A stretch of 20,000 nucleotides of DNA, from positions 192,240 through 212,239 of the forward strand of contig JBNGIO010005951.1 of assembly GCA_049999805.1 (NCBI GenBank). The letters run 5' to 3'. This document shows, piece by piece, positions 1 through 18,035 of this stretch. The notes under the pieces were generated by a model that was given only the letters and a program-made list of their open reading frames with translations, made no database searches and was not told the origin of the DNA. The stretch's first letter is position 1. Each line of letters starts with the position of its first letter. The translations under genes were made by a program, and so were the position numbers. This DNA is from Folioceros fuciformis. Taxonomy: Eukaryota.

Positions 1-2700
1 CATCTGCGACACCCAGAGGAAACAAACATGTTCCCACGTCTTACAGTCTCACCTACGCTGGCAAACACACAGGATTTCCCGAGACCATGATTCCCGGACA
101 CAACTGTCGCTGCCCTCCAGTCCAACGTGATGCGCCAGGACTTTCTCCGAAATAGCGGATGATTTCACTGGCAGCTGTCACCAATTCCTGATACCATCCT
201 CCAGATAACGATCCCGCTGCAACTTGGACTCTCCGATGAACTTGCAGGGAAGGATCAGGCACCCGGGATGCAATCCGTGGGAGCTGCAGATCTCCAAGGT
301 CCAAAGCAGATTTGGCTTAAACTCTCCTCATGCTGCATCCTAGCCGTGGGCGATACCAAGGAAGTTCGGGACTAGCCGCCTATAGAGGGGCATTTGCATT
401 GAAAACAGGTAATGCTAGACGGTTTCCAGTTGGGTCCTGGGGCTTACGGTCATTCATTTGCTGCAGCCAGTGCTTGTCTGGCTTGGGGAGGTGGGCGATC
501 CTGTGGCCGGCCATGCGACCCATTGTCAGCAAGCTGTGACCAGGAAAGGATGGCAGCGATGTGCGGCATGTGCAGGGAATGCCATGTTCCTGCAATGTTC
601 ATCTCTGTCACAGCAGCTCAAGGATCAGCTGTGTCAGCCGTGTCATTGTGGTCAGGACCCAGCTCCTGGAATTTGAAACGACGGAATGTTCCTAGCTTTG
701 TCACAGGCAGAAGGAGGTTGGCGGGCTCCGTTTTGTCTGTGAGAATCGTGTCGCTGATGCAGAAGCTGGAGACCTTTCCGCTTTTTCTCCCGACTGATGT
801 GGAGAAGCTCCAGGAAAGAGCTGCTCGGGATATGGCTGCCAGGATTCAGCAGCTTCCAGTGCAGGTTTTGTGGCGTCTTCGTTTGGTGCTGGATGCTGCG
901 GCTTGAGGTTATTGCTCCCCTGATTTTGGTCCTGACAGACGAGCCTATCCGCTGATCCAATTTTGACAAGTTGCGTGGCACCTTCGGGTGCTCACAAGGA
1001 CTGGCCACCACTCATGCTGCTGCATGGGTTTGATAGGTGATACTTGCTTCGGCGGTTTTTGCTGGCCTTATGGTGTGCTTCTGTGTGTCCTTTCCCTCTG
1101 GAGATCAGTGTTCAGGGGGATTTTATGTACTGCGAGCAACTAAAGCTGCTGTTTTTTTGTTGCGTCTTTTGGTAATGACCTCATGGTAGCTCGTGTCTAG
1201 AATGGCGGAGGACTTTCCCTCTGCTTGAGAAGGCTGGTCTTCGGCCATGGGCTATTGACATCCTTGGCTCGGGATTTTCGAACACAGGCAAGGCCACTGC
1301 TCCTTCTTATCTCTAGTTGAGCATGGGAACCTGAAGCCCGGAGAATACTTTCATCCACTAGCTAGCTAGTGTCTGTGATGGCTGATTAATATGCTGTGTG
1401 CAGCTAAGGGGATCTCATCCTTTGGAGTGGTTGCCAAGCGAGAGCACCTCTATGAGGTACGTCAATGGATTGGTTGTGTGTGACCCTGTGCAGTTATCAT
1501 GTCATGTTCTCAGGTGAGATACAAGGTAACAAGTAGGAATCTCTTCATTGTAGTTTTGGAAGACTCACATTGGAGAGCCTGTCATATTGATCGGGGCAAG
1601 CCTTGGTGGTGCAACTGCTTTGGACTTCACATTGGCTCACCCAGATGCCGTAAGCTTTCTGTTTCTACTGCCCTCATCATGCATACCATACGAAAGGAGC
1701 TCTGTGGAATAATTTGTAGTGGACTGGCTGATTTGCTCACCTTCAGGTCCACAAGCTGGTGCTCATAAATGCTCAAGGATATGCAGAAGGTATTGGAGAA
1801 AAAGATGCACTGCCGAAGTACTTGGCGTACATTGGAGTACGTTCTCGTCCTTTGTATCGATTCGGAAGCATGATGTGCCTGTAGACCTGTTTCTTCGGTC
1901 ATAATGTCTTGTCATTCCTTGAATCAGGCAGCAGTTCTCAAGAGTGTGCCATTGAGGGCGTATGCGAATACTTTGGCATTCGGCAAGATTTCTGCAGAAA
2001 TCCTCTTCGACTCCATGCGTGTACTGCATACCCCATCCTCTTTGTCTGTCTCCCATCTTGCTTTGTGGTCAGCCAAGGGTGTAACTCTCCTGATCCAGTG
2101 CACATTCATGTTCTTTGAGTTTGCCCAACTTCACAGGTTGGGAGATTGCATTGCCTCATGCCAGGCTGGGCGGACGCGTTGGTTGACTTCATGCGAAGTG
2201 GTGGCTACAATGTTAGTTCGCACGTCCAAGAGGTCTGCTTGACTCTTCCTTTCAGATTGCAGCAACTCTGCAATCTGCACGAGGTTAGGGTAGCTCGTGT
2301 TTGAAACGTTTCATTACGAGTGCATCAAGGGGAAGTTCTTGTTTTTTGGGGGTGTGCACTCGATGCAGGTGCAAAAGGAGACTCTAATACTATGGGGGGA
2401 GAAGGACAAGATTCTTCCTAAAGAGTACCCTGAGGTTCTCATTTTGCTGTGCTGATTTCTTGTCCAAACCTGCTAGCCTAGCGGTCCCACCCTTGCCTGT
2501 TGCTGTTGCTGAAGGCAATTCTGGCTGCCTTTGCAGATGTTTAAGGCAGACCTGCAAAACTCTGTTCTGCACTATATTCCGGACGGTGGTCACATACCAC
2601 ATGTGCAAAATCCGGAAGTCGTGTCATCTCTGGTATCAGACTTTGTCAAGAATCCGTTCCTGGAGAGCCGCCAGATTCACCAGTGAAGCGGGGACAAGAA
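1..2700 (-). mobile_element. Probable highly degenerate non-LTR (LINE-like) retrotransposon relic, running off the left edge
   Basis: Minus-strand translations are broken by stops and frameshifts but show motif-like remnants in LINE ORF2 order. RILDKV and CDHRP (~2580-2660) resemble APE endonuclease RLDR/SDH. VFAYALNGTLL..EETGL (~1880-1975) resembles RT YADD plus GLxIN. SLRHLGEP (~1635-1660) resembles YLG. NPVCLP..KTWEHVCF (~20-80) resembles the C-terminal zinc knuckle ETxxHLF. Motifs are degenerate and boundaries approximate. Confidence 0.4.
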
Positions 2701-6557: not shown

Positions 6558-7746
6558 CTAGAAATCCTCCGCTTCGCCATCCAGGTAAAATCTGTCTGAT
6601 TGCAACTCACTTGCTGGCGACAAAGCGAGCAACACGCCATCGCTTGCTCCTTCAGCAGCAGTCCTCCATACCGTTCCGGGAGGAGCCCGGCGGTGTCCCC
6701 AGGCCCACTCGCTGATATCGGTGACAGTCCAGTTAGGGCAATAAGAGATCACATGCACCTTTTGCCCTGGAGGCCTGTCACCAAGCTGCGCAGCCAAGAT
6801 CCGAGAATACGCGTTCACAAGGGCCTTGGAAACGTGGTAGTGAGTGATGGCCCATTTGTCTTTCTCGGGCTCCTCCTTCAGAGATGCGTAGTATTCCTGC
6901 ACCAATTTGTCCAACACTTCCTCTGAAAGTTTGTCCACTTCTTCCAGAGTCTGCCTCACTGAATCCTTGTTGATGTACTGGGAAGCGGGAAACAGGGTGA
7001 GCTTTGCAGGTTAATCAAGAAACAGCACAAGCGGGAGAGTCCATGACTTAGAGGAAAAATGGAGGGAACAAAAGACTGTACTTACCTTCAACAGCCCTGC
7101 CCTAGAGCTAACGATGATCATTCGAGCCCCGGCCTCTGATGCTCTCAGCAGAGGCAGGATGCTTCGGGTCACAATCTTGACGCCGTAGAAGTTTGTGTTG
7201 ATGGTCGGTGCAGCATCTTCAGGTGTGTTGTCATAGAAGAAGATGCCAGCATTGTTAACCTGACAGAAAGAAGACGGAGCCGTAAGAACGGCACTTGCAG
7301 ACAACAGAATCTCATCCAACAGCTAACAGGGCACGAAAAAAATAGCGTTCGGCATCAATCACCCAACCAGTATGTCAACAGCATCGTACTGTTCCTTCAA
7401 CCAATTTGCAAGCTTCTGTGCCGACTCCTCGCTTGCAACATCCAGCTGATGATACACAACCGGAAGCCCCTCATCCACCAGCTTCTTCACAGCATCTCGC
7501 CCTCTCGTCTCGTCCCGTGAGGTCAGCACTGTGGTTATCCCGTTCTGTGCGAGCTGCTTGGCTATCTCGAAGCCTATGCCTTTGTTGCCCCCGGTAACAA
7601 CAGCCACGGTATCCTTGGACCACCACCTGATTGCACCACACCAGGGTACTGGCTAGGTAAATACAGTTGCGTGCTCGAGAAATGACAGCCACTGGCATAT
7701 CACAGATTTTCCAGGACGGGCCAGACCTCGCCTTCTCACTCGTCAT
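6558..7746 (-). CDS. Short-chain dehydrogenase/reductase, carbonyl reductase (CBR1/neomenthol dehydrogenase-like) family, copy A, ~290 aa
   Basis: Exons 7746-7727, 7626-7368, 7259-7086, 6977-6558 with GT-AG introns (873 nt, in frame). Motifs: RWWSKDTVAVVTGGNKGIG (TGxxxGxG), HQLDV, DILVNNAG, NFYG, IVSSRAG, catalytic YHVSK, CPNWTVTD, TAAEGA. Confidence 0.92.
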
Positions 7747-8353: not shown

Positions 8354-9537
8354 CTAGAATTCCACCACTTCCCGATCCGCGAAAAATTTGCCCGAGCTGT
8401 TTTGCAACTCACTTGCTGGCAACAAAGCTAGCCACACGCCATCCGCTGCTCCCTCAGCAGCAGTCTTCCAGACTGTTCCGGGAGGAGCCGCGTTGTGTCT
8501 CCGGACATCATCGGTCATATCCGTGAGAGTCCAGCCGGGGCAGTATGGGATCACATATACTTTTTGCCCAGCGGGCCTGTCACCAAGCTGCTTAGCCAAG
8601 ACCCGAGAATACCCGTTCACAAGAGCCTTGGAAAAGTGGTAGTTAGTCTGGGCCCACCTTTCTGTCTCCGGGTCCTTCAGAGATGTGTAGTATCCTTGCA
8701 CCAATTCGTCCAACACCTCCTCCGAAAGCTTGTCCACATTTTCCAACGTCTGCCTCACAGACTCCTTGCGAAGACGCTGGAACAAGAGAACCGTACAGGA
8801 TTAGCTTTGCAGTTTGGGCGGGAGATAGTCCATGACGATCGAGCTAGCGACAGGCAGACTGAAGTAGAGAACACAAGACTGGACTCACCTCCAACAGCCC
8901 TGACCGGGAGCTAACGATGACAACTCGCGCGCCGGCCTCTGACGCTCTCAGCAGAGGCAGGATGCTTCGGGTCACAATCTTAACCCCGTAGAAGTTGATG
9001 TTGATGGTCTCTTCAGCACGGTCACCGGCTAAGGCGACGCCTGCATTGTTAACCTGACAGAAGACGGAACCTTCACAACGGCACTCGCAGACAACAGATA
9101 CTCATCCAACAGCTGACACGGCAAAGAAAGAAATAGCTTTCGGCATCAATCAACCAACCAATATGTCAACAGCACCATACTGCTCCTTCAACCAATTTGC
9201 AAGCTTCTGTGCCGACTCCTCGCTTGCAACATCCAGCTGATGATACACAACAGGGAGCCCCTCGCCCACCAGCTTCTTCACAGCATCTCGCCCTCTCCCC
9301 TCATCCCGTGAGGTCAGCACTGTGGTTATCTCCATCTGTGCGAGCTGCTTGACAATCTCGAAGCCTATGCCCTTGTTGCCCCCGGTAACAACAGCCACAG
9401 TATCCTTTGTCCACCATCTGCTAGAACTACAACAGGGGACAGGCTGCGTAAGTACACTAGCGTGCTCGAGAAATCAGAGCCACTGCCACAACACAGACAT
9501 TTCAAAGCCATCCAGACCTCGTCTTCCCCCTCGTCAT
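8354..9537 (-). CDS. Short-chain dehydrogenase/reductase, carbonyl reductase family, copy B (tandem paralogue), ~288 aa
   Basis: Exons 9537-9518, 9417-9159, 9053-8889, 8776-8354, with the same intron positions and phases as copy A (867 nt). Motifs: RWWTKDTVAVVTGGNKGIG, DILVNNAG, catalytic YHFSK, YCPGWTLTDM, SGKFFADREVVEF. Confidence 0.92.
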
Positions 9538-10187
9538 TGTAAACCCTCGGATTCCAGATGCGTTCACGTTCTCACTCCTCGAAGTTGCGAATGGCACCAA
9601 TCTATTGTTCCTGGTGTCACATTTCTGTTCCTCAACAAACAAGCACCTCAAGCAGAAATGCTGGTGGGTCTCCTAGGCAACCCGTCTCCATCTCATTTGA
9701 CGATGGCAAAGCAGTTCACCTACCCGGGCAGCGCATAGAAAACACAAAAACTAACTATGCTCATACAAACATAGCACTAGAATAATGAAAATGTGGACAG
9801 TAACATCCAAAAAGGTATATAAGATCAAAGGGTGTGAAGATCACAGATCATGTCACCTTCTAACCTAAGACTGAACACGTCTCAAAGATTCCAAGGATTA
9901 GAACTTGTGATTGCAAAAGTGGCCAACTGCTTACATTCAATAACATGGATGGATTCATATGATTGAACTGTAAGAAATCCTCACCACATTGGACTACACG
10001 TCCAAGCTAGAAACCACCCATGTTGTGACAAACTGTGTCTCCTCCTTATTCCTATTGTTGTTGTTATTGGACGGAGGGAACATATCTCTAAGCCTCGGGA
10101 CAGAGGAAGCATGCTGCTATCAAGCTAGCCCTAAATTCCACGAAGGGAAACGAGCTAACCAAGCACGGAGACAAGGTGACGTTGTAG

Positions 10188-12015
10188 TTAGCGAGGGTGC
10201 TGGTAGTTCTCTCCAGGTGCAGCGTGGGTGAACCAACGGCCAACCAGGACGCCGGGCTTGACGTTGTAGCGGGCAAGGTAGTCCGCATCCGCCACCTTCT
10301 GGACCCCGTTTTGCGACTTGGGGCAGGAACGGAATGCCGGGTAAAGGCTGAAGACGGGCGAGGAAGGCGCCACCCCGAAGTCGAGCCCGTTGAAGTCCGT
10401 AAACTGCATAAGCTTGCTGGTAAGCGGGGGGGCCGTGTAGTTAAGGCTGTTAAGAGTGCGCACCACTGGGACGTTAGAGCAGCTGAGATAAGTAGGCGTG
10501 TTCTTGGGCTTGCGAGGATCCACGATCACCAGCTCCAGCCGGTTCCCGGTTGGAATGCCGCTGCAGCCGCCGGTCACCTCGGTGGGTGCGCTGGCGGGCG
10601 GGTTGCAGCCGACGCCTCCGAACTGGGTGAGCTTGCAGAAATCCGTGAGCCAGGGGTACGCCTTGCGAAAGGCGGGCGAGCTGTAGGACGCGATCCGCTG
10701 CGCATCCCAGAACCTGCCGATCTCGGCCCGGCAGTTGTTGAGCTCGAAGTTCTGGCAGCTGATCCATCCCGGGAGGTTGGCGCCCACGACGACGAAGCTG
10801 GAGATGACGTTTGAGTGCCCGGTGTTGAGCTTGAGCCCGGAGGACTGATTGAAGCACACCATGCCGTCCACCTGGACCCCGGACGAGGCCCAGTCCAGGT
10901 ACATGCACTGGGGGCCCCCGACGGCGTAGTTGCAGGAGAGGTAGTTCCCGGGGTTGATCCAGTGCGAGGCGAAGTAGATGGCGGCTGCGTCGGATGCCGT
11001 CGGGTAGCCCGGGGTGACCGTGATGTAGTTGTTGACGATGGAGTTGAGCATGCAGTCGCCCACGTTGTGCTGCCCTGTCCCGCACTGCACCCCGGCGAAG
11101 GCCTGGTTGCGGAACACGTTGTTGGAGATGGAGACGCCCACCGACATGCGGCGGAGAAACGCGCCTACCTTGGCGCCTGTGACCACGCTGTTGGTGAGGG
11201 AGACGGCGGCAGGGATGCGGTCCGGCCCGTCGCCCACGAACCCGAAGTCGACGGCGGCGACGTCGGACGGGAGCGTGGCCACGGCCAGGGAGTCGAGGCT
11301 GATTTGGGTCGATTCCTGCACGTCAATGCGGCCCAGAATGTGGGTGGACTTGGCGATCTGGATGCCCCAGGAGCGGTAGATGAGGATCGCCGGACACAAC
11401 ACCGACCCCGAGTACGTGTCGTGCGGGAACGACGACTCGCAGTCGCCGTCCGCTGCCCCTGGCGCGTCCAGCGGGAGGTGGAAGTTGATGTTCTGGATCA
11501 GGACGTTGGAGGCGTTCCACACCACCAGGACCGGTCCCGCCGTCGCGTTGTTGTCCAAGAATATGGTGGCTGGCCGGTCGCCCGTGCTCGTCAGGATGGT
11601 GCATGAGAACTCCTCCGATAGGGTTATGGTGGACGGGCTTTTCAGGTCCGTTGCCACTGCCAGAGTTACCGTCGTGTTGGCTGGGTACAAGGTCCGCTTG
11701 TACAGGTCCGCCGGCGTGTTCACCACGATTCGTTTTGCGTTCACATCCGAGGAGCACGGCCCGCCTGCAGAAACGAGTTCTTGCTTGTCAGCATCGTGAA
11801 TTTCCTCCGTGGCACCATCCTGAATGCATCATGTTAGCCCAGTGAATCGAGGTCCGAGTGCATGCAATGCCATGAAGAGGAGGGTTGGAGGAGGAAATGG
11901 AGATGGAGAGGATACCTTTCGCAGATACCACGGTGGGTTGGTGGCAAAGGGTGGCCAGCACTGAGATGCATATCACCAGGCCGGACTGGAAGAGAGCTGC
12001 ATGGCTTCTAGCCAT
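10188..12015 (-). CDS. Secreted right-handed parallel beta-helix (pectin lyase-like fold) protein, 2 exons, ~558 aa, function unknown
   Basis: Exon 1 (12015-11916) encodes a signal-peptide-like MARSHAALFQSGLVICISVLATLCHQPTVVSAK and ends at AAG|GTATCC. The intron runs to TTTCTGCAG|. Exon 2 (11764-10188) is in frame with the 518-aa ORF. Repeated beta-helix/Asn-ladder motifs: NVLIQNINF, VSISNNVFRN, NSIVNNYI, DAAAIYF, GNYLSCNY, MYLDWASSG, GHSNVISS. Strong G/C bias at third codon positions. Confidence 0.8.
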
Positions 12016-12633
12016 TTTGCTCCCCAGCGAAGAGAGAAGAGAAGAGACTGAAGGGAAGAGTGCTCCTGTGTCTTGGACATGGCAACAGGGGGAATGCGGG
12101 CTTCATATACTCTGGGGAGACCAGCTCCCATCATTGGGGCCACTGCGTTGGAGACGCAAGTCTTGGAAGTGTAGAGGTTGGAGATGTTCGGTTTCAGAAA
12201 TTCATTGCTTGTTGGAAGCCCTCGTTGTGAGCATCGGCCTTTGGCCTTCACGATTCCTCTCCACTGTCTTTTAATCCTAAATGGGCGGATAAAATTTTAA
12301 TTCCTTACGTGCAAATTGGAGAAGGATCACCATCACGGTGCTTTGTTTGTAAGCCTGAATTCAGTAGCGGGGAAGGGATGACTAGTGAATTAAACGCGCA
12401 GCTGAAAACCGTCAGGCTCTTCAAGGTAGTCCTCTGGCATGGACCAAGGAAGAAGCGGGCGTTAAAGGTTACAAACCTTGTAATGCGAACCCACACTCGT
12501 TGAACCGAAGCGTGTTGCTATCCGAGGTAGGACGATGGGGACTCTCGCATTCGATCAAGAGGAGGAGGGGGATGTAGTAAAATTGAGGGGGCGAGGCTAG
12601 GGCAGAGTAGGGGTGGTTACCTGATCAGGTGGT

Positions 12634-13780
12634 ATGGCGGCAGCGGTGAGGGGCGTCCGGCACCTGCTGGGAAGGCTCGTAGTAAATCCGATTTCGGAAT
12701 GTCAGTCGCAACCGCTGGCATCGGCATCTGCGGCAGGGGCAGGGGTGGAGTGGTTGCACCGTGGGCGTATGAATGGGGTGAGTGCGCTTGCTGCGCAGCT
12801 GAGAGGTCTGTCCACGCTGCCCTCCGCCCTCGAGAGCCCTGCTGCTGAAGCTGTGGAAAGCACGGAAGGTGGTATCGGGCAGCAGGGAAGCCCTGCTCCG
12901 GCTGCCCCCAAGTACACCCCAGCGGCTGTGAAGCAGGCTACGGATGTTGGGTACAGCGTACAGGGACGCTTCGACGGCAGCCACATATGGATCAAGCGGC
13001 AGCAAGCTTTCGCAGTTGTGCAGGTGGGTAGGGTTGCCGGCTGTGGTGGTTGCGGGATCCGATGCTGGACTCTGGTCTTACGTACTGGTTGGGTATATCG
13101 CAGGTGGGGTCACACCAATTCAAGGTCACTCCAGGGGATCTCATCTACACGGAGAAGCTCAAGTACACTGACATCAATGACAAGGTAGTAGGAAAGGGCG
13201 AAGAGAAGCATTGACGTAAGTTTTGCAAGCGCTGGGCCGGGCTGGCTTCTCATGGCTTGGCTTTCCATGTTCAGCTGGCGTTGGAGAAAGTCTTGTTGGT
13301 GGGTACGACCACCAAAACCATTATCGGCAGACCCACAGTACCCAATACCACTGTGTATGCAGCTGTGGAGGAGCATGTAAGCAAGCATGGTGACCTCTCT
13401 ACTGCCGTTGCTCCAGTCATCCACATTCTCTTCGTCTGCTTCATGTGGAATGGCTGATGGGGTGCAGGCACTGGATGCTAAAGTGATCATCTTCAAGAAG
13501 AAAAGGAGGAAAAATTATCGTAGGTGCAAAGGCCATCGGCAAGTAAGCGACGCCATGCAGTGGCCTCGTGTGATGGACCTTCCCCTCCTTCTTCGGATGT
13601 GGCTCAGGGGACTCATCCACACCACACTTCTGTATGCAAGGTTGCTAGAAACCTTAGATGCCCAGACTGTGAAGATGACTGACAGTTTCCTGGTTGCAGG
13701 AGCTGACTGCTCTGAGAATTCTCAACATCAACGGGTTCGAGGAAGCGAAGGATGCAGAACAGCTTGCCAAGGCTGCCTGA
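12634..13780 (+). CDS. RPL21: Organellar (probably mitochondrial) 50S ribosomal protein L21 (bL21), 5 exons, ~242 aa
   Basis: Exons 12634-13023, 13104-13184, 13275-13376, 13468-13542, 13700-13780 with GT-AG introns (729 nt). bL21 motifs: [60 protein letters not shown]. The N-terminus MAAAVRGVRHLLGRL resembles a mitochondrial presequence. Confidence 0.93.
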
Positions 13781-14715
13781 TGAGTTCTTCCTGGTGCCTG
13801 GCAAGTGAAGTGTTCTGCATTTGCAAGGGGTGCATTTCCAAGACGGATGGATACCTGGCCATAAGAGACCTTCTGACGTGCAGAACACATGTGGTGTAAA
13901 TTGGCGGTTTGGATACCAGGCCATCAAATCCCTTGGAGTCGCTTTCTTCTTACATCTGACCCAGTGCCTTGGCGTCAGGAGCTTGAGTTGTCGGCTATAC
14001 TCCATTTCCGGACAAAACGGGCAGGATTTTTGTGACATGTTCCCTGTCTTCTTGTACCTTCCCAAGTTGGGCTGGCCAGAACCTCCAGTTCTGGAGTCTT
14101 GCGTGACTGCGAAGGTCAGAGACTGTTTTTGTGGCAGAGAAATGCTTTAAAAACATGTGCCTTAGCTGTGCTACTTTTCTTCCATTGTATGTAGACGTCT
14201 GTGTGCATGTACAGACACTGACTGACGTATCTTACGTATCTTCAGCTTGCGTCTCACCCGTGAGCTGCTTAGAACGTTCACGTGACTGCAGTTACATAGG
14301 GTTCGTCGGTGCATCTGACTACGTGAGATTCTTGAGTCACAAGGTTCACATCTAGTATGTTTGTATGTACGTAGTAGTGTCTGTACCTCGGACTTCGGGT
14401 GAAAGCGTTGCTAACATGTTATTGCTGCTCAAGGATGAATTCACTTGATATTGGTGAAGAGCCTTCTGCTGGGTTGAAGGTGTGGCTAACGTATGCACTT
14501 ATTCCTGTTCAAGAATGAATGCGACTTTACATTGGGGAACCTAAGTCTCCATCTGTGGAGTAGTTCCGACCAAAAAAGGATCCCCTATTTTCGAGTTCGT
14601 GCATAAATACAAGATGAATTACGGTAGTCTGGAGGAGGATTGGACCTCTATCCTACGGCGGTTGTCATGGAAAACGAATCGGTAAGCGTGTCCCAGCTTT
14701 TGAGGCAATTGTAGC

Positions 14716-16506
14716 TCATCTGGTCATCTTGTTTACAGTTGGAGTGATCCGTGTCTTTCTCAAGTTGTGTTCTTGAACAAGCTGCTCGGCGAACCAGTCC
14801 AAACGCTGCGAGTTGCTTTGAGAAAGCTCCCTTTTACCACCAAAGGGGTTGTGCTCCATCCCATTTTGCCCCAGCAAATCATCTGCTAGCTTCATCAGTC
14901 TGTTCACGTTGGTCCTGCTGGGATCGTCCATCTCAGTGAGACAACGGTCTGGGAGACCAAAGACCTATTACACAAAGACAAGTCGTGATTAGATACCAAA
15001 TGATTTTAATGATACGCTTTCGACACTGATACCGTTGTTAACACTGGTGGTGGGTGGTGCCATTTGGCATCGCTTGGTATTCCAAACCCCCCACAAAGCA
15101 AACAGGTCAGGTATTTCTGTTACCTGTATACGGACGTAGTTCTGACGATGCGCTCCAAAGGATATACAGATTGTGTGGTCCACGATGTCAGAGATGCCAT
15201 CGAGCACAATTTTCACAATAGGTTTTGCCCACTGAAAGGCTCCCCACTGGCGAATCTTCTGATACTTGTAGGTGCGATCGAACTGGCCCGTGCCAATCGA
15301 CAGCACAAGAAGATCATGGACTCCTCGGACAGAAGGAAACTCACGCTTATTGTGCAACACATGGGTGATTGCCGCTGCAGTGGGATTGTTCATCACCAGC
15401 CCCCCATCCACCGCTGTGCACGTTGTTTTGCCGTCTATGGATGTCAAATGCGCTGGCTTGAAGAAGGCAGGCACAGCAGAAGTAGCCCGGCAAACCTCCC
15501 ACAGCCGAAAGTCCCAAGTCTCTGCACCCAGTGCGTCAGCTCTTGAGAACAGAAAGGGTCCCGCGCTACAGAGATCATAACAGGGAATGAGCACTGGTTT
15601 GATGGTATCCCTCAACGTCAGGGCACGTCCATCCCTCACCAGATGCTCTTTCAATACTTCCTCCAAATACTTAGAAGAGTACCTGGGAGTCAGGATTCCC
15701 CGAAGTTTCGACCATGGACGCTGCAGCTTCGGTATCTTGAAAATCTTTCTGCCCTTATCAGCAATAAGTTTCCAAGTCTCCTCTCCCCGAAACAGGGGCC
15801 GACCCTTCCCATCGTCCGTGAAAAGCATAGTGGCAAGTATGCCGCCCACACTCGTCCCCGCTGCTACATCGAAATAATCCACAATTCGGGCCTCGGAATC
15901 CCCACTCTTCGTCTTCAGAGCGTCCTCCAGGTATGCCAGAACTCTTCCCGCAATGATGCCTCTCATGCCGCCTCCATCGATGGACAGTATACAGACTTTC
16001 CCCCTCTCCGCGTCCAGTGCGCTGTAGGAGTCACCCTCAGCCTTCTCGGGTTCCGACGACATTCTCGCATCCTCTGCGACCTCAACGTTCACTTGAGGAG
16101 GCTCCGCGAAGAGGTGCGGACGCTGCTCCTCATTTTGTATCAAGTCAGTAGGAACCTGAGTTGAACGAAGCGGAGAAGCAGGACCTCGAAGCGGAGACGA
16201 AGGACCTCGAAGCGGAGAAGCAGGACCTCGAGTCGGAGAAGGTGCGCTACTGCCACCCGACACACGATTCCTGACGGGGCTTCTCCCAGGCGAAGGTGTG
16301 ACATGACTTGTGGAATGTCTGGGCCTTGCCGGACGATTGTGTGAGGCTGACAAAGTACCAATCTTGGACGCAGTGCCGACGGTTTTCCTCGGGGACTCAA
16401 CAGTCATAAATGAAGGAGGTTCACCAGCGGCTGCCGCAGATCGATTTCCATAAACACCTTCGGCGTCATCATCCAGCTCCGGGAATAGGCTAAGTAACCT
16501 CGGCAT
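14716..16506 (-). CDS. Patatin-like phospholipase A, group III (pPLAIII/PLP6-7-like), 2 exons, ~543 aa
   Basis: Exon 1 is 16506-15124 (CAG|GTAACA) and exon 2 is 14964-14716 (TAATAG|GTC). Motifs: CILSIDGGGMRG, DYFDVAAGTSVGG, LIPCYDL, PFLFSRADA, VCRATSA, VDGGLVMNNPTAAAITHVLHNKREFP, LLVLSIGTG, YVRIQ, C-terminal RLDWFAEQLVQEH. The start codon is less certain because the N-terminus is low-complexity. Confidence 0.92.
16166..16241. repeat. 21-bp tandem repeat (~3.6 copies) inside the patatin CDS
   Basis: cgaagcggagaagcaggacct / cgaagcggagacgaaggacct / cgaagcggagaagcaggacct / cgagtcggagaag. On the minus strand it encodes SPTRGPASPLRGPSSPLRGPASPLR. Confidence 0.9.
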
Positions 16507-18035
16507 GACGCAAAATTCTCAGGCTGCTACAACCATCTCAAGTCAGTTAAGGCAGAAATCCAATTCTCGCCTCCTAGCTACCGTCCTAGCTTGAGCTGTC
16601 CAGGAAACCGCAACCGCGAGTGTCAATCACAGGTTGAGCAAAGAAGAAATGACATTCTCCAGGCCAGGACCGGCCCCGCGAGAAACGGACAAAGGACTTC
16701 ATGCCGGGAGGAAACACAATCTACGGACACAGGCAACCACAGGGCAGCAGAGTGTGAAACAATGTCACGGAATGCAAGCTAAGCTACTGGTACCTTTCAC
16801 CAGCAAGGGAGAAAAAGCATTTAGCAACAGCAGCACTCCGTTCCTCAGTGTCTAAGCCAGTACCGCACTCAATTGCGAAGATTGGCGAACACGAGGGGCT
16901 TTGTCGCGCCAATCCGCACTGTCCCGCAGCCGGAACAAACCCCTGCACGGCTGACCATCACTCTACAGGGCCGGGCACAGTGGAACAGCTGGAATTGTAG
17001 CACCTCCGAAACAGAACACAGTACGACACTGCTAAAACAGTAATGCTCTGCTCCTCCAGCTCCAGTAAACTTCCCCGCGCGGCCGCAGTGACATGTGCCG
17101 ACTCGCTCGCTACCTCCCTCGCACAATTGTTCCTCCATTCATGTCCTGCGAGGAGGAGGGGAAGCAGTGATCGGGGAGGCTTGCAAGGGCAAATCCTATG
17201 CGGAATTGCGGTGAAACCCGCAAGACATGAGTGTGCAGCCGTCGGCCGCTGTCCCAGTTGCTACAACGGCTGTCATTCACTGCGCCGGCGCCGAATTCCC
17301 GATATGCAACATCAATGCGCAACGGCATCGGGGCGAAGCCAGAAGCCTGTCTCGTGTTCTGCCCGTTCACCACAGCTGCAGTCGTTAACAAACAATCCTC
17401 TTGAAAATACACTCACTTTAGGGATTGCGTAACAGCCATTTCAAGTCACCCATAACTATAGGTGGTGTCCCAATTCGGTCCGCACGCACATGGTATGTAC
17501 TGCAGGCCTATCGTGTTCGCCGACAAAACACCGAGCAACCTTTTCTCACTCTATCCTCACAAGCTTCATTTTTCCCGGTTATCTCGTAGAATAAATATAC
17601 AACCTTTTTCAGTGAATAAACACTTCAGAAAAGGAAAAGAGATGGAATACGAGGAGGACCAATCAACCAGAGGGCAAAGAACCAAGAAGAGGAGCAGTGA
17701 CACGGGATCCAATACATTTTTAATACTTCTAAATATTCATACAAATAAATATTAGAAACAAATCACCATAAATTCAGGGTGCTGCCTTTTTCCGGAAAGG
17801 TGAACACTTTCCTTTGCGAGAGTATGGCAGCGGGGGCTCCGGAGGCCAGTTTTGGGCCTGGCCTTTGTGGGGCATGGGAATCTGTAGGCTACAGGCCGCC
17901 CCAAGCCATACCGGGGTGCCTGGTAACATCGGGTGAAGGCTTTTCTCCTCACGGGAAAACTGTGGAGAGGAAGGCAAGTCTGTTGTCCGGATGCAGCCCA
18001 TGGCACGGCAGTGGAACCAGCCAACACTTCAACGA

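Follow-up and report, generated by a model that had tools for sequence, protein, structure and literature searches.

The founding member of glycoside hydrolase family GH141 is BT_1002 of Bacteroides thetaiotaomicron, and the family also includes the xylanase XynE (Cthe_2195) and the endo-fucanases Wf141_1 and Wf141_2. The characterised enzymes act on polymers that contain fucose or xylose and cut xylan, sulfated fucan and a side chain of RG-II. In BT_1002, two papers name D523 as the putative nucleophile and D564 as the putative acid/base, both of them essential (PMC10154630, PMC12786026). The first of these describes the catalytic mechanism of GH141 as still undemonstrated and puts 98% of the family's members in bacteria (PMC10154630).

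The window analyzed here (the whole stretch of DNA, 20,000 nucleotides) carries a gene that had been flagged as a bacterial-like beta-helix enzyme gene and a candidate horizontal acquisition. Profile and pairwise comparisons place it in a small family, confined to eukaryotes, with a remote relationship to the bacterial GH141-type beta-helix glycoside hydrolases. By the same comparisons, the family is without the beta-sandwich insertion of those enzymes and has acquired conserved cysteines. The locus is probably an intact, vertically inherited streptophyte nuclear gene for a secreted GH141-like hydrolase of wall or mucilage polysaccharide.

The gene and its link to GH141

In the open-frame translation, a minus-strand frame of 546 codons runs from stop to stop across 10188..11828, and the preliminary description was right to see the mature domain as one uninterrupted exon; the beta-helix and the C-terminal cap are both encoded entirely by the main exon (Table 1). 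The extent then proposed, 10188-11764 with no strand given, is correct at its lower limit and at its upper limit cuts off about 55 bases of the exon. The five motifs quoted at that stage are all present in the translation (DAAAIYFASHWINPGNYLSCNY, CMYLDWASSG, SYSSPAFRKAYPWL, PTGNRLE and DFNGLDFGVAPSSPVF). No ATG occurs in the main frame ahead of residue 228, and a sole phase-compatible donor/acceptor pair links it to the signal-peptide frame upstream. From the letters we infer a gene of two exons in which the leader is encoded apart from the main exon. The hydrophobic core of exon 1 was assigned by eye; other family members likewise begin with hydrophobic leaders, and the exon 1 stretch is kept in a contig of one related organism (11890-12205). 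In run X3, the sole contig that spans the intron (11779-12225) is unspliced. The contigs of that run, whose RNA nature was only guessed, fall within 9941-12225.

Table 1. Features of the GH141-like gene, in window coordinates
Feature	Position	Strand	Details	Basis
Main exon	10188..11819	-	543 codons + stop; TAA 10190-10188	open frame
Inferred intron	11820..11928	-	GT..AG, 109 nt, phase 0	read from sequence
Exon 1, coding part	11929..12015	-	29 codons, MARSHAALFQSGLVICISVLATLCHQPTV; signal-peptide-like N-terminus	
Codon GAC, Asp280 (ORF)	10989..10991	-	Asp306 of the 572-aa precursor	profile alignment with BT_1002 D523
Codon GAC, Asp312 (ORF)	10893..10895	-	Asp338 of the precursor	profile alignment with BT_1002 D564

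A Pfam scan of the ORF protein (P0001) at E<=1 returned NosD alone (E 0.066), NCBIfam gave no meaningful family for it, and a phmmer search of PDB sequences found no match at E<=10. The Beta_helix model PF13229 matches eight of 30 family members (best E 3.1e-08), P0001 not among them; P0120 scores 30.8 bits against a cut-off of 25.9. The GH28, PL1 and CE8 models found neither P0001 (E<=1) nor any of the 30 members (E<=0.01), in keeping with the earlier remark that the protein is unlike these plant enzymes by sequence, and PF21231 (GH141_M) likewise has no match in P0001 or in any of the 30.

Searched against PDB sequences, a profile of the family places BT_1002 first, with a marginal E of 0.0022 over about 115 residues, and the alginate lyase AlyF at E 0.6-0.9. 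The resemblance to bacterial beta-helix proteins that was proposed at the outset is real though distant, as BLASTP aligns the ORF with the bacterial-type protein P0202 (E 1e-9, 23% identity, 292 residues) and brings exactly the quoted motifs into register. The patterns set beside those motifs at that stage are those of a large bacterial family, the GH141-like proteins (P0202, P0203 and loci L001-L080), which come from genomes titled Planctomycetota, Armatimonadota, Verrucomicrobiota, Acidobacteriota, Bacteroidota and others. These proteins, about 690-790 aa long, have an N-terminal part and a GH141_M insertion that are both missing in the algal proteins, and they are without the conserved cysteines; against the 27-bit GH141_M cut-off, P0203 lies above (28.9 bits) and P0202 below (21.3 bits). 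With hhalign, the algal family matches ten of the bacterial sequences at a probability of 99.0% (E 2.9e-18, 375 columns), the match beginning past the GH141 insertion at template position 282, and a profile of those ten sequences matches BT_1002 at 4.6e-26.

Distribution, phylogeny and origin of the family

The family search gave 169 matches among 1.84 billion representatives, with family members scoring 300-560 bits. Thirty of the 169 clusters were looked up; 21 carry an organism name, every one of them eukaryotic, and nine are without one. The named members of this multi-copy family come from Closterium, Spirogloea, Mesotaenium and Netrium, from two chytrids and from one diplonemid; land plants, and streptophytes beyond these four algal genera, are absent from the 21 named clusters. 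Word-indexed profile searches returned at least 11 and at least 8 proteins. Among 982 sampled bacterial genomes, 45 have any match, the best at 55 bits and none full length; the best bacterial match anywhere reaches 68 bits at about 23% identity and covers the core only, and the best bacterial matches as a group show 20-25% identity across the catalytic core. Scans for the conserved pattern gave eight pattern matches in prokaryote genomes and 81 in viral contigs, none of them related. Relatives of P0202 are encoded in 490 of 600 scanned stretches of prokaryote genomes.

Two trees, both unrooted, were built: a quick PMSF tree of 58 rows, and a careful LG+G4 tree of 54 rows, made without four long-branch rows (L087, L100, P0105 and P0146), in which the bootstrap was not fully settled (correlation 0.988). 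The bacterial side comprises 30-32 relatives, namely one subfamily plus matches from four phylum samples. A single long branch parts the eukaryotic rows from the bacterial ones (99 with PMSF, 100/96 with LG+G4) and occurs in 100% of the 200 bootstrap trees of the LG+G4 analysis. The algal family forms one clade (96; 98/94) to which the chytrid proteins are sister (85; 100/97). In both trees this gene nests among paralogues from Spirogloea, Mesotaenium, Closterium and Netrium, and in neither does it nest among bacterial sequences, the point fixed beforehand. The proposed horizontal acquisition by this genome is not supported, since the family is one clade, un-nested in bacteria, and its nearest non-algal relatives are chytrid.

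An older event deserves more weight. An ancient bacterial GH141-like gene may have entered a eukaryote, dropped its insertion, gained disulfides, and then spread from one eukaryote to another, as from zygnematophycean algae to chytrids or the reverse; such a history would be compatible with the functional explanation given below. It draws support from the patchy eukaryotic spread of so few matches (four algal genera, two chytrids and one diplonemid), from the placement of the chytrid proteins next to the algal family, from the abundance of P0202 relatives in prokaryotes and the overwhelmingly bacterial makeup of GH141, and from named matches that include no land plant and no streptophyte beyond the four algal genera; we give it a little less than an even chance. 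Weighing on the other side, the trees are unrooted, so that donor and direction cannot be read from them; the algal family has the chytrids beside it as its sister and not within it; the same unrooted tree would result if the gene had descended vertically from far back and been lost many times; the bacterial sample is narrow; and only 21 named clusters stand for the 169 family matches. Vertical inheritance in the streptophyte lineage is the reading that we prefer, and any bacterial origin would be ancient.

Predicted fold, active site and composition

The AF2 model of the ORF protein (pLDDT 88.7, pTM 0.90) is an uninterrupted right-handed beta-helix with strands across 32-357, and its only low-confidence loop is at 121-140. 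VIA-align comparisons with beta-helix enzymes give Z scores of 24-26. BT_1002 (5mqp_A; Z 24.6, rmsd 3.3, 308 aligned residues, range 31..514) has the highest identity among the VIA-align matches listed, at 15%. Scores no lower than that of GH141 go to the epimerase AlgE4 (Z 26.0) and to NosD (Z 25.4); further matches are an alginate epimerase/lyase (Z 24.9), several PL6 lyases (Z 22-24) and PfbA, an adhesin (Z 22.5). Foldseek ranked GH136 and PL6 at the top. As far as the predicted model goes, these structural matches are generic to beta-helix proteins. Such neighbors, with PL6 lyases among the best Foldseek E-values and AlgE4 among the top structures, would suit a beta-helix protein that is no glycoside hydrolase at all, be it a polysaccharide lyase, a C-5 epimerase, or a wall protein that binds carbohydrate or adheres and has no catalytic activity, and the undemonstrated mechanism of GH141 itself leaves room for one. 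We nevertheless regard this as distinctly improbable: the profiles favor GH141, with BT_1002 well ahead of AlyF, the hhalign match extends to GH141-like bacterial proteins over its full 375 columns, and the Asp pair that is essential in BT_1002 is invariant or nearly so.

In the profile alignment, D280 and D312 fall on D528 and D569 of the BT_1002 SEQRES record, the only Asp pair spaced by 41 in the aligned stretch, and a numbering offset of 5 converts these to D523 and D564. D280 is kept in all 17 algal and all 32 bacterial alignment rows, and D312 is invariant in all 58 aligned rows. The two residues are thus the predicted counterparts of the BT_1002 pair. Together with N267, N300 and Y310, they are identical in the bacterial GH141-like proteins; C398, C408 and C422 are kept in every eukaryotic group, and the bacterial proteins lack them.

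The composition of the gene sets it apart from its surroundings. GC is 0.65 at 10501-11500 compared with 0.517 in the remaining window, and the main exon, at 0.856, has the highest GC3 of the window. The preliminary description had called the gene richer in GC and GC3 than neighbors with many introns, and this is borne out on both counts: the flanking genes, with Pfam matches to Peptidase_S10, adh_short, Ribosomal_L21p and Patatin, consist of short, separate exon pieces with GC3 values of 0.53-0.80 (patatin-like ORF, 0.53; six SDR exon pieces, 0.60-0.67; bL21 exon, 0.64; three SCPL exon pieces, 0.70-0.80). Recent or lineage-specific uptake by this genome of a gene from a bacterium would fit that difference, as it would the whole domain in one long exon, the motifs in common with bacterial proteins, and the nearest ESM Atlas clusters. 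These are bacterial beta-helix proteins throughout, with hints of Pseudomonadota and Gemmatimonadota among them, and as their counts of shared features are low (118-138 of 256) they serve as a lead only. It is very improbable all the same, given bacterial matches that are faint and confined to the core next to the scores within the family, the position of the gene inside a clade of zygnematophycean paralogues in both trees, the eukaryote-specific cysteines, and a leader in a separate exon. Recent transfer from a bacterium to a plant is contradicted by the trees and has no close bacterial homologue to draw on. Since the family is old in the lineage, codon bias is a more likely cause of the high GC3 than foreign origin.

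The unlike composition might also hint at an assembly contaminant, a pseudogene or a chance ORF, which is scarcely credible for a frame that stands in one stretch between intron-split eukaryotic genes, is covered by DNA contigs of run X1 spanning 9800-12400 (two pieces, overlapping at 10926-10953), keeps all of the invariant family residues intact, and has orthologous contigs in two related organisms that are 89-93% identical to the main exon and differ from it mainly at third codon positions (by manual count, 24 of the 38 in-exon differences among 40 listed, 186 more existing). Paralogue contigs are present in the same organism.

Predicted function and comparison with known enzymes

The product had been described from the outset as secreted and glycan-active, and so it looks. 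The enzyme would be secreted to the wall or mucilage, where the groove of the helix would accommodate a polysaccharide chain and Asp280 and Asp312, as carboxylates on successive coils, would hydrolyze a glycosidic bond; the protein closes with a C-terminal cap that bears conserved cysteines. Because the characterised GH141 enzymes cut such polymers, the most likely substrate would be a fucose- or xylose-bearing pectic or mucilage polysaccharide of the organism's own extracellular matrix, and the enzyme may serve in wall or mucilage remodeling.

No living group is closer to land plants than the zygnematophycean algae, and the chemistry of the walls and mucilage of these algae is central to ideas on terrestrialization. 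Chytrids are fungi that attack or live on algae or pollen. A multi-copy, secreted, GH141-like family that these algae retain, and that has no land plant among its named matches, would give them a matrix-remodeling tool specific to the lineage, and clear outside relatives in chytrids only would make it a concrete and testable case of gene sharing between algae and their fungal associates; this link is the lead of most interest. In its boldest form, which we put forward tentatively and on balance doubt, the proposal is of a sister family of GH141, undescribed and restricted to eukaryotes, insertion-less and disulfide-stabilized, with many tandem and dispersed copies in algae, shared almost only with chytrids through at least one alga/fungus transfer atop an ancient bacterial origin, and acting on fucose/xylose-rich pectin or mucilage. 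Among the listed papers on zygnematophyte HGT and glycoside hydrolases, titles and abstract openings contain no mention of the family, although supplementary HGT gene lists could hold one; a literature search found no paper on Zygnematophyceae and GH141 together, and a single, unrelated one on Zygnematophyceae and beta-helix. Most members are missed by Pfam, and CAZy-type annotation would need a dedicated model.

The chytrid proteins (Podochytrium sp. JEL0797 KAJ3063238.1; Blyttiomyces helicus RKO94211.1, RKO91858.1 and RKO93673.1) are full-length, have the same architecture at 25-27% identity, and have C398, C408 and C422 in common with the algal proteins. They differ in the replacement of H289 and W290, in a C-terminal transmembrane-like tail on at least one of them, and in their fungal, as opposed to algal, occurrence. 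The plant GH28, PL1 and CE8 enzymes have the same general fold (Arabidopsis PGLR, Z 23.2; a fungal endopolygalacturonase, Z 23.7), and differ in that their Pfam models are without a match in P0001 or the 30 members scanned. With BT_1002 (PDB 5MQP), the founder of GH141, the family has in common the right-handed parallel beta-helix catalytic domain, the motif around both aspartates, and a C-terminal cap with a D-F-x-L-x(3)-S-P-like motif at its end, at an identity of only about 15-23%. The beta-sandwich insertion of BT_1002 (residues 109-295, GH141_M) is absent from the family, which in contrast to BT_1002 has eukaryote-specific conserved cysteines and a eukaryotic leader.

Structure, composition and constraint of the beta-helix gene

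The beta-helix gene centers on a minus-strand stop-to-stop frame whose translation contains all five motifs quoted in the preliminary description. The first ATG within this frame comes no earlier than residue 228, so the start codon must lie upstream. A candidate first exon, encoding a signal-peptide-like leader (MARSHAALFQSGLVICISVLATLCHQPTV), can be joined to it through the sole phase-compatible GT-AG pair, and the predicted precursor would be 572 amino acids. In the only bridging contig (record 16 of sequencing run X3, possibly an RNA run), the putative intron is kept, which could reflect intron retention, pre-mRNA or DNA within X3.

Features of the window, with third-position GC (GC3)
Feature	Position	Strand	Detail	GC3
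Stop-to-stop frame	11828-10188	minus	546 codons	
Exon 1 (candidate)	12015-11929	minus	ATG at 12015; 29 codons	0.69
Intron (putative splice)	11928-11820	minus	GT at 11928, AG ending 11820; 109 nt	
Exon 2	11819-10188	minus	read from sequence	0.856
Bridging X3 contig	11779-12225		intron kept	
Most conserved motif-coding stretches	10731-10781; 10924-10978			
SDR gene, two tandem copies	6558-7652; 8354-9473	minus	exon pieces, n = 6	0.60-0.67
SCPL exon pieces			n = 3	0.70-0.80
bL21 gene	12625-13900	plus	exon	0.64
Patatin-like frame	14989-16518	minus	509 codons, uninterrupted	0.53

X1 DNA contigs span the entire gene stretch. Orthologous contigs differ from it at 49 of 735 and 70 of 841 bases in related organism B and at 169 of 1551 in organism C; in a listing of 40 differences (186 further ones lie beyond it), 38 fall within the exon, and 24 of these occupy third codon positions by hand count. 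On the evidence of these contigs, this is a genuine gene evolving under constraint. Several same-organism contigs (X1, X3) match just the two most conserved motif-coding stretches, with 4-5 differences, and diverge beyond them, and thus represent paralogues of the family at other genomic sites. Among them, an X3 contig reaches a depth of 111, versus 23 for the gene's own contig.

The flanking genes are ordinary eukaryotic ones split by introns (Peptidase_S10, adh_short in two tandem copies, Ribosomal_L21p and Patatin), in line with the earlier reading of the SCPL, SDR and RPL21 neighbors. The beta-helix exon had also been called richer in GC and GC3, which holds against the window's neighbors: GC is 0.65 in the exon core versus 0.517 for the remaining window, and GC3 exceeds every neighbor's. 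The patatin-like frame is likewise long, and its low GC3 indicates that long exons in this region are not necessarily GC3-rich. That frame carries, N-terminal to its patatin-like phospholipase domain (Pfam E 1.8e-26), a Ser/Pro-rich region with the repeated unit GPASPLRGPSSPLRGPASPLRS. The SDR copies have almost identical exon pieces (e.g., RWWSKDTVAVVTGGNKGIGFEI and RWWTKDTVAVVTGGNKGIGFEI), and by sequence the pair looks like a recent local duplication. The gene for bL21, an organellar-type ribosomal protein, lies on the opposite strand ~600 bp upstream of the beta-helix gene start, and the two probably have a common short bidirectional promoter region.

Eukaryotic relatives and remote homology to GH141

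Alone, the protein (P0001) matched no Pfam family (NosD at E 0.066) and no PDB sequence. HMMER comparison with 1.84 billion representatives recovered 169 proteins at E<=1e-3, 67 of them at <=1e-30; the maximum identity to any database protein is 47%. Organism look-up covered 30 clusters, 9 without an organism name and 21 with one, all 21 eukaryotic: Closterium (11), Spirogloea muscicola (3), 'Mesen1' ME000157S... entries that we take to be Mesotaenium endlicherianum (2), Netrium digitus (1), the chytrids Blyttiomyces helicus (2) and Podochytrium sp. (1), and a transcriptome of the diplonemid Namystynia karyoxenos (1). No land plants occur among these named hits. Among the papers searched, none joins "Zygnematophyceae" with "GH141", and "beta-helix" accompanies the former in one unrelated paper.

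Spirogloea family genes are clustered on scaffolds s46, s47, s56 and s221, in loci of ~3 kb versus ~1.7 kb of coding sequence, which therefore contain non-coding sequence. Four Spirogloea and Closterium gene models of 1000-2000 amino acids (P0013, P0014, P0015, P0159) hold two or three domain copies and may represent either genuine tandem fusions or adjacent genes that were merged. Outside the algae, the closest relatives are chytrid proteins of two species (P0094, P0149, P0146, P0163); one ends in a hydrophobic tail, and a second is fused at its C-terminus to a long stretch of unrelated sequence.

Searching with a profile of the diplonemid-type subgroup (A4) led to two bacterial-type proteins, P0202 (E 1.7e-9) and P0203 (E 2.2e-5), which both match Pfam Beta_helix strongly; for PF21231, the GH141 insertion domain, the 27-bit cut-off is exceeded by P0203 (28.9 bits) but not by P0202 (21.3 bits). 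Aligned by BLASTP (E 1e-9, 23% identity, 292 residues), the window's ORF and P0202 line up at exactly the motifs in which the preliminary description saw a bacterial resemblance, and this resemblance reflects a true remote homology with enzymes of the GH141 type. In prokaryote genomes, P0202 relatives are common: 490 of 600 scanned stretches encode one. The 80 loci retained belong to genomes titled Planctomycetota, Armatimonadota, Verrucomicrobiota, Acidobacteriota, Bacteroidota and others.

The algal family profile recovers GH141-like genes in 5/5 source genomes (E 3e-12 to 4e-9) and matches 99 open frames across 100 loci (top 67.9 bits). When the algal alignment was compared profile to profile with 10 bacterial sequences, the probability was 99.0% (E 2.9e-18, 375 columns), and the match began C-terminal of the bacterial insertion domain. 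Against PDB, the bacterial profile finds BT_1002, the founding GH141 member (4.6e-26), and entry 9rx2 (2e-54); the algal profile ranks BT_1002 first among all PDB sequences (E 0.0022). Among 982 genomes sampled from the four GTDB phyla containing loci L001, L078, L017 and L019, 45 matched the algal profile (20/301, 14/301, 5/79 and 6/301, respectively), with a top score of 55 bits versus 300-560 for family members; the matches were confined to profile positions ~200-365 (sometimes to 418) and the C-terminal motif. Algal-family patterns scanned in prokaryote and viral contigs found nothing related.

Phylogeny and origin

Sequences were trimmed to the homologous core and aligned with MAFFT L-INS-i. 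A quick PMSF tree used 58 rows and 326 columns; a careful LG+G4 tree, its bootstrap not fully settled, used 54 rows and 317 columns, with four long rows left out. Bacteria lie together on one side of a branch (quick 99; careful 100/96, and 100% of 200 bootstrap trees), the algal family is one clade (96; 98/94) that joins the chytrids (85; 100/97), and the diplonemid-type group stands apart (100; 100/99). The window's protein is sister to the Logan protein P0002, amid Spirogloea, Mesotaenium, Closterium and Netrium paralogues. Locus L042 (1212-3284), on a 4-kb contig from a MAG titled Nitrososphaerota archaeon, holds a GH141-like gene with 49% identity to P0202; its place inside the bacterial sequences of the quick tree suggests binning error or transfer.

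The beta-helix gene is a member of an old, multi-copy zygnematophycean family. An ancient bacterial origin for the whole eukaryotic clan is plausible, as is an exchange of genes between algae and chytrids. The preliminary proposal that this genome acquired the gene horizontally finds no support, because the gene belongs to that old family, has a eukaryotic leader exon and conserved cysteines, and is not nested among bacterial sequences in either unrooted tree.

Fold and comparison with BT_1002

The AlphaFold2 model, computed from an alignment of 30 sequences (pLDDT 88.7, pTM 0.90), has a right-handed beta-helix at ~residues 32-357 and, after it, a mixed helix/strand cap that extends to ~530. 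Foldseek matched it best to GH136 and PL6 (E 5e-5 to 1e-3). An independent structure search gave Z 20-26 against many beta-helix enzymes, including AlgE4 epimerase (26.0), NosD (25.4), BT_1002 (24.6, range 31..514, with the top identity in the list, 15%), PL6 lyases (22-24) and polygalacturonases (21-24). In the model the beta-helix fold is certain, yet fold alone names no family.

Two reports give D523 (putative nucleophile) and D564 (acid/base) as essential in BT_1002 (PMC10154630, PMC12786026). In the chain stretch matched by the algal profile, the sole Asp pair 41 apart is SEQRES D528/D569, which implies a numbering offset of 5, and this pair aligns with D280 and D312 of the family. In the 58-row alignment D280 is kept in 17/17 algal and 32/32 bacterial rows, D312 and N300 in 58/58, and N267 in all rows but one chytrid row, which has a gap there. 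The gene product would be a secreted glycoside hydrolase using D280 and D312, probably on fucose- or xylose-bearing matrix polysaccharides. For this reading the fold, the homology and the residue conservation are established, while we infer secretion, activity and substrate. Every eukaryotic group conserves cysteines C398, C408 and C422, whereas the bacterial GH141-like rows lack them.
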